This document shows positions 41,636-45,458 of a stretch of 58,844 nt of DNA, in pieces. This DNA comes from an uncultured Bdellovibrionales bacterium (GTDB lineage Bacteria > Patescibacteriota > Minisyncoccia > Moranbacterales > UBA1568), in NCBI GenBank assembly GCA_964612055.1, contig CAZTBI010000004.1, positions 1-58,844 on the forward strand. The letters run 5' to 3'. The translations under genes were made by a program, and so were the position numbers. The notes beneath the pieces are model-generated. The model was not told where the DNA came from. It worked only from the letters and a program-made list of their open reading frames with translations, and ran no database searches. The first letter of the stretch is position 1. Each line of letters begins with the position of its first letter.

Positions 41636-42358
41636 CTAGCTCTCAATCCACTGAAAGAAACGGGCGCCAATCTGACGGACTTCACGTAATCCCTCTTTTT
41701 CCACGGAAATCTTTGGTAGAGTTTCCAATTTGTTATGAAGAAACAAGCGAATGAGCTTGATAGCGCTCTCGGTCACTGGAAGCGCTCCATGCGCATGATG
41801 GGCATGCTCGCCACGGAGCATACCTCCGGCACTGGGACTAAAGAAGTGACGCTCCCCAGAGGAAAGTTTTTCTCCTGATACCGCACAGACACCGGTTTCG
41901 ATCTCATAACCGAGATGCGCAAAAAGTTGAAAGAGGAACCCTTCTGTGACCAGAAGAACCTTGGTAATCTTCCTCTCCTTGGCAAGATCATTTGTTACTT
42001 CCAGGTATGTTCCTAAAAGTTCAAACAATTCTTTGTCTTGTTGCTCGAAGCCAACTAAACGCTCGAAAACACTCACCGCTTCAAGAACACGTTTATAGAT
42101 ATCGAGATCGTTTCGCAGATGAATGAAACTTTTCTCGGCCACCGCCCCGGCAATCTTGCCCGCGCCACGCCCTTTCACCACGATGATCAGTCCCTGCATC
42201 AAAGTCTCGAGTTGCCCTGCCAATTTGGCTTCTGATTTACGCACTCCTTTCGCGACTAGCATAAGCTTGCCGGCCGTATCAGTGTAGATGGTATACAACC
42301 GATCCGTTTCGCCAACCTCTTTTTTCTTCAAGACAATAGTGTTATAGCGCAGTTCCAT
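41636..42358 (-). CDS. recO: DNA repair protein RecO
   Basis: VGETDRLYTIYT...GKL...AKGVRKSEAKLAG; C..SG...F....GG. Confidence 0.93.
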   Translation of the reverse strand: MELRYNTIVLKKKEVGETDRLYTIYTDTAGKLMLVAKGVRKSEAKLAGQLETLMQGLIIVVKGRGAGKIAGAVAEKSFIHLRNDLDIYKRVLEAVSVFERLVGFEQQDKELFELLGTYLEVTNDLAKERKITKVLLVTEGFLFQLFAHLGYEIETGVCAVSGEKLSSGERHFFSPSAGGMLRGEHAHHAHGALPVTESAIKLIRLFLHNKLETLPKISVEKEGLREVRQIGARFFQWIES

Positions 42359-45225
42359 TAAACGCGTTTCAGAGTAAAAGAAAATTCTTCGCCATCAAGT
42401 TTCACAGTTTCAGAATGTTCCGCATCTGCTAGAGCGCCTCTTTCAACTTTTGTAGCAAGAACTTCTTTGGCAATATCTGTTTCGAACTTCGCGAAGACTT
42501 CATCTTTACCAACATAACCAAGAATAATGCGATCCTCGACATTAAAGCCAGCCTTCTTGCGACCCTCCTGGATCGCGCGCACCACTTCCCGCATCTCGCC
42601 TTCCAGCCTAAGTTCGGGAGTGATTTCCAGATTCAATCCTAATTCCCCTGCTACAATATCTTTTACGTTAAGTTCTTCCTGCAAGATCTCATGCATATCA
42701 CTCGAAAGCTCTGCTGTCCCAATACGGAATTCCGAGAGCGGCTGACGAACTTTGATCTTAGCATCAGCTCGTAATTTCAAACCTTCCGTCACTAAATCGC
42801 GAACGGTATGCATTTGCTCGTTCAACTTCTCATCAATCAAGCTCCCGTCTGCCACAGGATAATCAACCAAATGCACCGACTCTTCTCCTGTTAAGTTCTT
42901 GTAAATTTCTTCGGAGAGGAACGGTGTAAATGGTGCCATCAGTTTCGAGAGAGTAACCAGTACCGTATAGAGCGTCTGGTACGCCTGTTCCTTATCAGCA
43001 TCGTCTTCTGACTTCCAAAAACGCTTGCGACTGCGGCGGATGTACCAATTAGAGAGATTATCGACAAATGGCGCAAAGGCTCGAGTAGCACGATTCAGTT
43101 CGTAAGAACCCATAGCGCTATCCACTTCTTTGATTACCAGTTGTAATTCTGAAAGAATCCAGCGATCAAGCAGGTTGTCCGATAACTTCGCATCTTTCTT
43201 CAGCTCCCAGTTGTCGATACTGGCATACGTAGTGAAAAATGAATACGAATTCCAAAGCATACGAAAGACGTTCCGGACGATATCAGAAAGATCGCGTTCG
43301 GAAAAGTTCAAATTCTCAGCTGCTACGACTGGTGAAGACAAGAGATAGTATCGCAATGCATCAGCGCCATATTTATTCAAAATATCCATCGGATCTGGAT
43401 AGTTTTTCAAGCGCTTCGACATCTTCTTGCCATCTTCTGCCAGCACAATGCCGTTTACAATCACGTTCTGAAAGGCATTACCTTCCTTGATGCCCGTCCC
43501 AATAACATGCTGGTAGTAAAACCAGGCACGCGTCTGATCGATACCTTCAGCAATGAAATTTGCTGGAAACGTCTGTTCAAATTTTTTCTCATTCTCAAAT
43601 GGATAATGGCTCTGAGCGTACGGCATAGAACCCGAATCAAACCAGGTATCGAGAACGTCCGGAATACGATGCATGACCTTGCCACATTTCTCGCACGGCA
43701 CCGTCACTTCATCGACGATGTGCTTGTGAAGATCATCTACCTTTTTTCCACTGGCATCTTCAAGCTCTGCTACTGACCCAAAAACTTTCATCTCACCACA
43801 TTCACATTTCCAAAGTGGCATGACAGAGGCCCAGTAACGCTGACGACTGATTGACCAATCACGTGCTCCTTCGAGCCACTTGCCGAAGCGTCCTTCTTTG
43901 ATGTGCTCCGGTGACCAATGAATGTTCTTGGCCAATTCCAACATCTTTGGCTTGATATCCGTCACCTTCACAAACCAAGACGAAGTAGCATAGTTCAAAA
44001 GCGGCGTATCACAACGCCAACAATGCGGATAGCTGTGTTCGTATTTTTCCTTGGCAAAGAGCGCCCCTTGCTTAGCAAGATATTTAATTATCTCGACATC
44101 CATGGCTTGCGGATCTTCTTTTGATTTCACCGGTTTACCAGCAAAGTCTGTTACTTCCGCTTTCATGGTGCCATCCATATTGACGTGCTGCACCCACGGT
44201 AAGTTGTTTGCCTTCCCCAATTGCATATCGTCCTCACCAAAGGCTGGCGCCTCATGAGCGATGCCCGTTCCCATGTCAGTCGTGACAAAATCTGCATGGT
44301 AGATCTTCCAGCCATTTTCACGATGCTCTAACTTCTCGTCGTTCGCATAGTAATCAAAGAGTGGTTTGTATGATTTGCCAACGAGCTCCTCCCCTTTCAT
44401 CTCTTTCGCAACAGTATATTCTTTGCCAGCAAAAACTTTTTCAGCCAAAGCTTTTGCCACGATGTATTTCACTTCTTCGCATTCCACAACCACATAATCC
44501 AAATCCTTATTCACAGCCAGAGCCACATTCCCCGGCAAGGTCCACGGTGTCGTCGTCCAAGCCAAAACAAAAGTTCCCGGTTCATCAACCAGCTCAAACT
44601 TTGCTGTGACAGCCAAATCCTTCACATCCTTGTAGCCTTCTGCTACTTCTGACTGCGAGAGCGTCGTCTCACAGCGCGGACAAATATGCATGGTTCGGTA
44701 ACTTTCGTAAATCAGTCCCTTGTCCCAGAGTTCTTTGAAGACCCACCAGACACTTTCCATAAAACTCTTGTCCATGGTGGCGTACGGATGTTCCATATCG
44801 GCCCAACGACCGAAACGATTGATGACTTTTTTCCATTCCGCTACATATTCAAGCACCTTGGAACGGCAGATCTCATTAAATTTGGCGACACCTAGAACTT
44901 CAATTTCTTTCTTGTGCGTAATCCCCAGCTCTTTCTCAGCGATGTTCTCGATCGGTAACCCATGACAATCCCAGCCCCACTTACGCTCTACTCGGTAGCC
45001 TTTCATGGTGAAGTAGCGTGGCACAGTATCCTTGATAGCACTCGCCACGATATGACCATAGTGCGGCGTCCCCGTCGCAAACGGCGGCCCATCATAGAAA
45101 CTATAGGGCTTGTCCGCTGGTCGCTGCTCGATCGATTTCTCAAAGATGCGGTTCTCATTCCAGAACTTAAGCACCTCTTCTTCCATCTTCGGAAAACTGA
45201 CTTGCGATTCAACTTTTTTGAACAT
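42358..45225 (-). CDS. ileS: Isoleucine-tRNA ligase, type 2 (HYGH signature)
   Basis: YDGPPFATGTPHYGH, GWDCHGLP, WTTTPWTLPGN, KMSKR. Start trimmed to MFKKVES. Confidence 0.97.
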   Translation of the reverse strand: MFKKVESQVSFPKMEEEVLKFWNENRIFEKSIEQRPADKPYSFYDGPPFATGTPHYGHIVASAIKDTVPRYFTMKGYRVERKWGWDCHGLPIENIAEKELGITHKKEIEVLGVAKFNEICRSKVLEYVAEWKKVINRFGRWADMEHPYATMDKSFMESVWWVFKELWDKGLIYESYRTMHICPRCETTLSQSEVAEGYKDVKDLAVTAKFELVDEPGTFVLAWTTTPWTLPGNVALAVNKDLDYVVVECEEVKYIVAKALAEKVFAGKEYTVAKEMKGEELVGKSYKPLFDYYANDEKLEHRENGWKIYHADFVTTDMGTGIAHEAPAFGEDDMQLGKANNLPWVQHVNMDGTMKAEVTDFAGKPVKSKEDPQAMDVEIIKYLAKQGALFAKEKYEHSYPHCWRCDTPLLNYATSSWFVKVTDIKPKMLELAKNIHWSPEHIKEGRFGKWLEGARDWSISRQRYWASVMPLWKCECGEMKVFGSVAELEDASGKKVDDLHKHIVDEVTVPCEKCGKVMHRIPDVLDTWFDSGSMPYAQSHYPFENEKKFEQTFPANFIAEGIDQTRAWFYYQHVIGTGIKEGNAFQNVIVNGIVLAEDGKKMSKRLKNYPDPMDILNKYGADALRYYLLSSPVVAAENLNFSERDLSDIVRNVFRMLWNSYSFFTTYASIDNWELKKDAKLSDNLLDRWILSELQLVIKEVDSAMGSYELNRATRAFAPFVDNLSNWYIRRSRKRFWKSEDDADKEQAYQTLYTVLVTLSKLMAPFTPFLSEEIYKNLTGEESVHLVDYPVADGSLIDEKLNEQMHTVRDLVTEGLKLRADAKIKVRQPLSEFRIGTAELSSDMHEILQEELNVKDIVAGELGLNLEITPELRLEGEMREVVRAIQEGRKKAGFNVEDRIILGYVGKDEVFAKFETDIAKEVLATKVERGALADAEHSETVKLDGEEFSFTLKRV

Positions 45226-45235
45226 AGGGTTAGAA

Positions 45236-45420
45236 AAACAAAAAATCCTTAACACAAAAATCGTGCTAAGGACGTTCGAAAACGTGGTACCACCTTGCTT
45301 CTCCATCCGCCAGCTGGCGGAGGACTTATTCGCAGCTATTACGGGCTTGCCCGCCAAGGTCTACTCGTCAAAATGACTTTCTTCTTGGAGCTCCGGGGTG
45401 ATTTTCCCCTTCATTGCCTT
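45236..45420 (-). promoter_or_regulatory. Ile T-box riboswitch with ultrashort stem I and intrinsic terminator
   Basis: GGGG-AAAATCA-CCCC specifier (ATC at 45400-45402), AGTA stem II, AAGG-TGGTACC-ACG...CGT-CCTT antiterminator, 10-bp terminator plus U tract. Confidence 0.92.
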
Positions 45421-45429
45421 TACAGGGTA

Positions 45430-45458
45430 ATAGTAGCAGGAGCAATCACTGAAATCAA
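45430..45458 (-). promoter_or_regulatory. sigma70 promoter of the T-box/ileS transcript
   Basis: TTGATT-N17-TACTAT with TGn, placing the start just before stem I. Confidence 0.65.

Follow-up and report, generated by a model that had tools for sequence, protein, structure and literature searches.

A predicted ileS T-box in a Patescibacteria genome joins a miniature, actinobacterial-type tRNA-reading arm to a transcription terminator

The ultrashort Stem I ileS T-boxes of Mycobacterium smegmatis, M. tuberculosis and Nocardia farcinica were reportedly the subject of work by Sherwood, Grundy and Henkin in 2015. The abstract of that work is said to describe many, not all, actinobacterial leaders as predicted to be translational, so a terminator-type ultrashort example may already be mentioned there. 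Structures of the actinobacterial class are available (6UFG, 6UFM; PMC7583486), and the ultrashort Stem I has been treated as translational, confined to ileS and actinobacterial (PMC7583486; bioRxiv 10.1101/2023.02.28.530422). A review assigns intermediate or ultrashort Stem I's to translational T-boxes and gives a kinetic rationale; in its account transcriptional T-boxes need an elbow-binding distal Stem I for fast tRNA capture (PMC7583486). From this capture-speed argument it follows that co-transcriptional function of an ultrashort design is not self-evident.

Here we analyse the ileS leader on the minus strand of a stretch of 58,844 nt (contig CAZTBI010000004.1; the window hereafter means this whole stretch) from an uncultured bacterium placed in Patescibacteriota. 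With the transcriptional T-boxes of Bacillota (B. subtilis tyrS; RF00230) the leader has in common the exclusive antiterminator and terminator, the U-tract, the UGGN-NCCA pairing, a specifier codon, a K-turn and Stems II, IIA/B and III. The canonical Bacillota form has a long Stem I, a specifier in an internal loop and distal T-loops on the tRNA elbow, whereas the window's leader has none of these. The glyQS T-boxes of B. subtilis, G. kaustophilus and O. iheyensis resemble it as transcriptional and structurally reduced leaders, but their reduction is the opposite one: they kept the long Stem I and dropped Stem II and IIA/B. Closer in design are the actinobacterial ultrashort T-boxes, which also precede ileS and have the K-turn with a 4-bp helix, a 6-7-nt loop NNAUCA, the GAAGAA/AGUAGA S-turn, IIA/B, Stem III and UGGUACC, and no distal platform. 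In the actinobacterial class, however, the 3' strand of the anti-sequestrator pairs with a Shine-Dalgarno (SD) sequence (GGAG) and no U-tract follows, whereas in the window the corresponding partner is AAGGAU, followed by U5GU5. The window also comes from another phylum, is AT-rich and has a short A2 helix without insertions. The analysis below supports the reading of the ileS leader as a genuine T-box in which a miniature tRNA-reading arm of the actinobacterial type is joined to a transcription terminator.

Identity of the T-box and its decoding module

At Rfam gathering thresholds the whole window gives only a tRNA-Leu. With E-value reporting, RF00230 matched the ileS leader at 45423-45265 on the minus strand with 57.6 bits; the E-value was 4.9e-12 when the region was searched and 2.3e-12 when the genome was. 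The score stays below the gathering score of 93 bits because 72 Stem I positions of the model are replaced by 3 nt. A plus-strand match to Spd-sr07 (19 bits, E 1.9) was dismissed as chance, as it is the terminator read backwards. RF00230, a motif search and a custom-model search agreed on a single T-box in this 0.94-Mb, 99.8%-complete genome. No other synthetase gene of the genome therefore has one, which extends an earlier remark, made from the sequence-only reading of the window, that leuS, glyQS, metG and argS show no T-box.

Every element listed in that reading was found on the minus strand where it had been placed (Table 1). The Stem I K-turn is formed by GGC-AAUGA and GGA-GCU and carries the helix GGGG/CCCC, with AUC held in the terminal loop AAAAUCA. 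The distal Stem I platform of interdigitated T-loops is absent: Stem I consists of 4 bp and then a 7-nt loop. The terminal-loop specifier, the short K-turn Stem I, the S-turn, the IIA/B pseudoknot and the ileS gene downstream are together the architecture of the ultrashort ileS class. Stem III is stable (-15.0 kcal/mol, z -3.8), with 0 of 200 shuffles as stable. The T-box sequence AAGGUGGUACCACG at 45296-45283, whose 7-nt bulge conforms to UGGNACC, is invariant in relatives, and the AAGGUGGUACC of the antiterminator is invariant in all 12 leaders compared.

Table 1. Features of the ileS leader and their coordinates in the window
Feature	Position	Strand	Basis
Span of all elements first described	45458-45233	minus	direct reading of sequence
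Structured ileS leader, to the U-tract	from about 45423	minus	direct reading of sequence
T-box core, Stem I to antiterminator 3' strand	45265..45423	minus	RF00230, 57.6 bits, E 4.9e-12, model 1-219
Ultrashort Stem I, K-turn + 4-bp helix + 7-nt terminal loop	45389..45418	minus	sequence, RF00230, folding
Stem I K-turn 5' half GGCAAUGA	45418-45411	minus	sequence
Stem I hairpin GGGG-AAAAUCA-CCCC	45409-45395	minus	sequence
Stem I K-turn 3' half GGAGCU	45394-45389	minus	sequence
Specifier AUC (Ile), then conserved purine A45399	45400..45402	minus	invariant A-U-C in 12/12 aligned leaders
Stem II: CCAAG/CUUGG lower helix, GAAGAA/AGUAGA S-turn, GUCA/UGAC upper helix	45354..45388	minus	
Stem IIA hairpin CGGG-CAAG-CCCG	45353-45342	minus	sequence
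IIB pseudoknot partner GCUG, pairs with IIA loop	45336-45333	minus	sequence, covariation
Stem III UCCUCCGCC-AGCU-GGCGGAUGGA	45302..45324	minus	folding; matches Stem III positions of RF00230
Antiterminator AAGG-UGGUACC-ACGUU-UUCG-AACGU-CCUU	45268..45296	minus	RF00230, alignment
T-box bulge UGGU, predicted partner of uncharged tRNA-Ile 3'-ACCA	45292-45289	minus	
Terminator hairpin GUCCUUAGCACGA-UUU-UUGUGUUAAGGAU, 13 bp	45273-45245	minus	terminator scan, folding
U-tract UUUUUGUUUUU (U5GU5)	45244-45234	minus	sequence
ileS, 955 aa, regulated gene	42358..45225	minus	AUG at 45225, 8 nt 3' of U-tract
Promoter-like site, TTGATT-N17-TACTAT	-35 TTGATT 45453-45458; -10 TACTAT 45430-45435	minus	inferred

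The resemblance to the actinobacterial class was quantified with R1, a covariance model built from 36 actinobacterial decoding modules only (alignment A2, whose own structure is supported). R1, which is partly circular in that its training set was collected with a 21-base pattern derived from leaders of the candidate phyla radiation (CPR), covers the ileS leader end to end (1-101 of 101) with 64.5 bits and an E-value of 1.5e-14, and this is its sole match in the genome. Collection fixed the 21 pattern positions of the training set, while the spacing, the 5' half of the K-turn and the helices were free. The full-length match agrees with the earlier assignment of Stem I to the actinobacterial ultrashort type. 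The comparison with T-box models proposed together with that assignment has been made with a general and an actinobacterial-only model, and both, RF00230 and R1, recognise the leader.

The genome has one tRNA-Ile(GAU), encoded on the minus strand of another contig (G000 C1:447040-447114), with discriminator A73 and the CCA not encoded. The specifier AUC is complementary to the GAU anticodon, and the bulge UGGU fits the A73/ACCA end. The specifier, the ileS gene and tRNA-Ile(GAU) are consistent with one another, as are UGGU and the discriminator A73.

Competing helices and the predicted output of the switch

The 13-bp terminator hairpin has a folding energy of -15.1 kcal/mol (z -7.6), and 0 of 200 shuffles were as stable. 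A simple terminator scan called it independently (13 pairs). The antiterminator helix alone is weak, at about -3 kcal/mol. Six nucleotides, GUCCUU, are common to the 3' strand of the antiterminator and the start of the terminator, so the two helices are mutually exclusive; the terminator and U tract that had been proposed as one of two exclusive states are therefore upheld, also by the relatives described below. The minimum free energy fold of the whole leader is the terminator state, which says nothing on the tRNA-bound fold. The hairpin is an intrinsic terminator in form, being stable and directly followed by U5GU5, and it is of a type used by the organism: in this genome the density of hairpin and U-tract sites over the 80 nt that follow stop codons is 7.5 times the density inside ORFs. 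The idea that the hairpin serves as the terminator of the upstream nrdG unit was rejected, since the entire T-box precedes the hairpin and 6 nt of the hairpin also belong to the antiterminator.

No SD precedes ileS, whose upstream sequence reads UUUUUCUAACCCU-AUG, and the claim that the gene lacks one is matched by the genome at large. Judged from upstream regions only, the assembly containing no 16S rRNA gene, GGAG, GAGG and AGGA are no commoner upstream of 605 long ORFs at -20..-5 than at -60..-45. A U at -1, present in 64% of these ORFs, is the sole signal. The hairpin lies 19 nt before the ileS AUG, and the AAGGA of its 3' arm ends 20 nt before it. An SD sequestrator facing an anti-sequestrator is thus not what the ileS leader presents; there is no SD, and a U-tract follows the competing helix.

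Very probably, the ileS leader is a T-box with tRNA-Ile-dependent transcription antitermination that works without contact to the tRNA elbow. The elements, their conservation and covariation, the tRNA match, the exclusive helices and the absence of an SD were computed here, and from them we infer tRNA binding, charge sensing, termination and a promoter. Transcription would begin shortly before 45423, with TTGATT-N17-TACTAT as its probable promoter. The nascent RNA would fold the K-turn-based 4-bp Stem I and show AUC in its terminal loop, and tRNA-Ile(GAU) would be bound via the anticodon alone, the elbow not being contacted. When the tRNA is uncharged, its ACCA end would pair with UGGU and stabilise the weak antiterminator, stacked on Stem III, which would permit readthrough into ileS. 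When the tRNA is charged, GUCCUU would pair with the downstream AAGGAU, and the resulting 13-bp hairpin and U-tract would stop transcription 8-19 nt before the ileS AUG. How the time window of transcription might be met without the elbow is a matter of speculation; the short module might fold early, or the polymerase might pause or be slow.

The tRNA might set termination while the read-through leader also affects how ileS mRNA is translated or decays. Refolding of the hairpin is possible in the full-length mRNA, where it lies 19 nt before the AUG, and without an SD initiation probably needs an unstructured U/A-rich leader. Nothing specific points to such a second level of control, however, and the distance between hairpin and AUG is very variable in relatives, so we regard it as very improbable.

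A promoter of its own had also been ascribed to the leader. The promoter-like TTGATT-N17-TACTAT, within which the nrdG-like ORF upstream has its stop codon (45455-45457), is an 8/12 match and went uncalled by a promoter scan with a threshold of 9/12. On the other hand, leaders from the same genus again have a TTGATT-N17-TAnnnT box, 2-15 nt before the T-box. The recurrence at the equivalent place speaks for the claim and the weak match, missed by the scan, speaks against it; the site is a putative promoter, weaker than the sequence-only reading implied. In some relatives a second element is seen. TACAAT is conserved 2-8 nt before Stem I in L004, L015, L020, L021, L024 and L028, with TACGAT in L008, some 5 nt beyond the first -10-like box, and the window's own leader has none. 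It may be the true -10; alternatively, it may be a conserved part of the 5' leader.

Conservation in relatives and actinobacterial counterparts

Of 61 genomes from the same order, 47 have T-boxes by RF00230, and in none of the 61 is the gathering score reached. Across the phylum, matches at E <= 1e-4 were present in 103 of 301 sampled genomes and reached the Rfam cut-off in 8 of the 301. The T-boxes of Patescibacteria are thus probably under-represented in TBDB and other Rfam-based catalogues. The TBDB class II model was searched only in Actinobacteria and Rfam-detected sequences (PMC7778990), so that CPR leaders below the Rfam cut-off would be missed. Our literature search found no paper linking T-boxes with Patescibacteria or the candidate phyla radiation.

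A survey of CPR ileS leaders, which had been suggested as a check, gave a uniform result. All 30 Ile-type leaders of relatives have a hairpin on the GUCCUU strand with a U-tract immediately after it. The hairpins have 9-23 bp (at most 16 bp in 29 of the 30) and energies of -9.5 to -20 kcal/mol. Among random 140-nt segments of the same loci, 5.3% score as hairpin and U-tract, and 1.6% do so at the right distance. Positions 7-11 of the terminator stem change in a compensatory manner (AGCAC/GUGUU, AUGCA/UGCAU, GGCAAA/UUUGCC). The gene downstream of the leader is ileS in 29 of the 30 relatives. Its start lies 124-1244 nt past the terminator in 10 relatives, with an ORF of at least 50 aa between in 7, and only transcriptional control reaches that far.

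These results bear on a translational switch as in Actinobacteria, in which the hairpin would act as a sequestrator, covering the region where ribosomes load onto ileS, and the U-run would be incidental. Its helix topology is that of the actinobacterial sequestrator, its 3' arm has the SD-like AAGGA, and in the relatives L011 and L023 only 13-14 nt separate AAGG and the AUG. However, AAGGA ends 20 nt from the AUG in the window and the genome as a whole gives no SD signal. This genome makes general use of intrinsic terminators, all 30 relatives have a U-tract after the hairpin, and in 10 of them ileS is 124-1244 nt away. We therefore give the translational explanation little credence and retain tRNA-dependent antitermination.

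The genes that lie between the T-box terminator and ileS were noted in L006, L038, L103, L009, L012, L016, L025 and L028. A protein of 137-151 aa with a weak, nucleoside-deoxyribosyltransferase-like match (Nuc_deoxyrib_tr) occurs in three genomes. The others are of TrpR-like, NYN, NUDIX (two genomes) and 23S_rRNA_IVP types, together with a membrane protein without a Pfam match.

For 12 compact CPR leaders RNAalifold recovered Stem I, Stem II, IIA and the antiterminator, with compensatory changes at all pairs of Stem I and of lower Stem II. A larger alignment (A3), in which 34 CPR sequences were fitted to the structure of R1, has 96.2% of cells paired, as against 72% for shuffled sequences and at most 49% with slid partners. 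Both partners have changed in 18 of the 21 pairs of Stems I, II and IIA, and compensatory changes affect all 4 pairs of the Stem I helix and all 5 lower and 5 upper pairs of Stem II. Covariation of IIB was seen by eye in CPR leaders (CUGAC/GUCAG, GCAC/GUGC) and counted in actinobacterial leaders (helix 6).

Such maintenance is difficult to reconcile with a decayed T-box whose terminator is a constitutive attenuator or a leftover, unresponsive to tRNA. The idea draws on the missing tRNA-elbow platform, the score below the Rfam cut-off and the fact that this is the last T-box of a reduced genome. However, none of the functional elements (AUC with its purine, the S-turn, the pseudoknot, UGGUACC) is damaged, and none varies from genus to genus; compensatory changes have preserved the helices, and UGGU agrees with A73. 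A constitutive 13-bp terminator before an essential gene would also be costly. Decay is in our judgement highly unlikely, and a functional, tRNA-responsive terminator remains the preferred reading.

The 4-bp Stem I with a 6-7-nt loop NN(N)AUCR occurs in 22 leaders, and 5 leaders have a small extra distal hairpin resembling the 'short' class; terminators are found in both types. L097 and L103, from named CPR MAGs, have the same design of ultrashort Stem I with hairpin and U-tract. As judged from these sequences, the terminator-type ultrashort ileS T-box is common in its lineage and recurs across Patescibacteria. The sequence-only reading had presented the leader as a hybrid, and both halves of this description are borne out. 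It is not a one-off, though, but the usual design of the lineage, and in relatives it is used with other amino acids too.

Counterparts outside the lineage were sought with the 21-base pattern AUCA-N5-GAG-N7-ANGAA ... GUANA-N6-CGG-N6-CCG, scanned against one genome per prokaryotic species. The scan gave at least 80 loci. Among the matches listed, 77 are from Actinomycetota (Nocardia, Mycobacterium, Nocardioides, Arthrobacter and others), and the other 3 are from a 'Patescibacteria group' MAG, a 'Parcubacteria group' MAG and an AT-rich MAG labelled Pseudomonadales. Bacillota are not represented among the 80 matches listed, which is no more than suggestive. The actinobacterial leaders read GGC-GUCGA-U-CCGG-CCAUCA-CCGG-GGA-GCC and the window GGC-AAUGA-A-GGGG-AAAAUCA-CCCC-GGA-GCU, the architecture being alike.

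The two groups diverge after the decoding module. Among the matches listed 73 loci were analysable, and a hairpin with a U-tract was found in 0 of the 71 actinobacterial leaders sharing the decoding module, a count that is only part of the contrast because GC-rich Actinobacteria seldom use U-tract terminators. The remaining 2 of these 73 loci, from a Patescibacteria MAG and the AT-rich MAG, both have a terminator. The actinobacterial leaders have SD sequestrators 5-12 nt from the start codon, the layout already published for them, as in ...CGUCCCCGUGCC...GGCACGAGGAGAC-N7-AUG, with the SD inside the downstream complement. The statement that actinobacterial ultrashort ileS T-boxes mask the SD thus agrees with the sequestrators and with the lack of terminators in these 71 leaders among the matches listed. 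By comparison of these leaders, the two platforms share their topology and differ in a small respect, the downstream complement being followed by a U-tract in CPR and by a nearby start codon in Actinobacteria.

Implications and variant leaders

A conserved ultrashort Stem I before a terminator contradicts the rule that transcriptional T-boxes have a long Stem I. An RNA of 190 nt and a single tRNA would suffice to put the kinetic argument behind that rule to a direct test. The ultrashort form could be ancestral, or it could have been exchanged between CPR and Actinobacteria, with the outputs interconverted by gain or loss of the U-tract. For physiology, the leader would mean that CPR genomes without an SD signal retain amino-acid-specific feedback on an essential synthetase. 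For engineering, it would offer compact transcriptional tRNA sensors.

Terminal-loop-specifier T-boxes for amino acids other than Ile were observed in the same order, with the specifiers ACC, GGC, GAC or AAC, and UGC; they have a hairpin with a U-tract, and their bulges are UGGA or UGGU. The genes downstream are thrS (L026, L034, L036, L041, L046, L049), alpha2-type glyS (L035, L037, L039, L047), aspS (L010, L032; in L032 with the Asn codon AAC) and cysK (L033, L044). We tentatively suggest, with a confidence a little short of even, that in Patescibacteria the terminal-loop-specifier T-box is a standard co-transcriptional tRNA sensor and not an oddity of ileS.

The glyS leader L037 (G044:C8:14709-14826) has only about 118 nt, in which the Stem I GGGG-GUUUGGCU-CCCC is followed by a linker of about 20 nt, Stem III, the antiterminator and the terminator. 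L037, and L039 as well, apparently have neither an elbow platform nor Stem II. A review holds that truncated Stem I's hardly bind tRNA without Stem II. If these stripped glyS leaders work, elbow-based fast capture is not required for kinetic control and the minimal tRNA-sensing RNA is about 120 nt long.

Several leaders depart from the common form. L073 (CAYSEI010000001.1, from a MAG of 33% GC labelled uncultured Pseudomonadales, a label that looks doubtful) is an ileS T-box of the ultrashort kind in which Stem III is not obvious. Here the T-box bulge and the upper helix together make up the 5' arm of the terminator (CCGCGA...UCGCGG-U7), so that the terminator wraps round the antiterminator instead of replacing its 3' strand. 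In L103 (JBAZSS010000002.1, a Parcubacteria group MAG) the bulge is AGGUACC and not UGGUACC, which would leave A76 of the tRNA unpaired. Stem III is replaced in L014, L017 and L025 by AU-rich hairpins of 60-100 nt with GUAU/AUAC repeats (e.g. AUACAUGAUAC), which look like a small repeat element inserted into the leader. Lastly, L043, L045, L048 and L050 are leaders of about 250 nt with a large conserved 5' structure that end in GGUGGCA(A/C)CACGA and a terminator, and RF00230 scores them at 26-41 bits.
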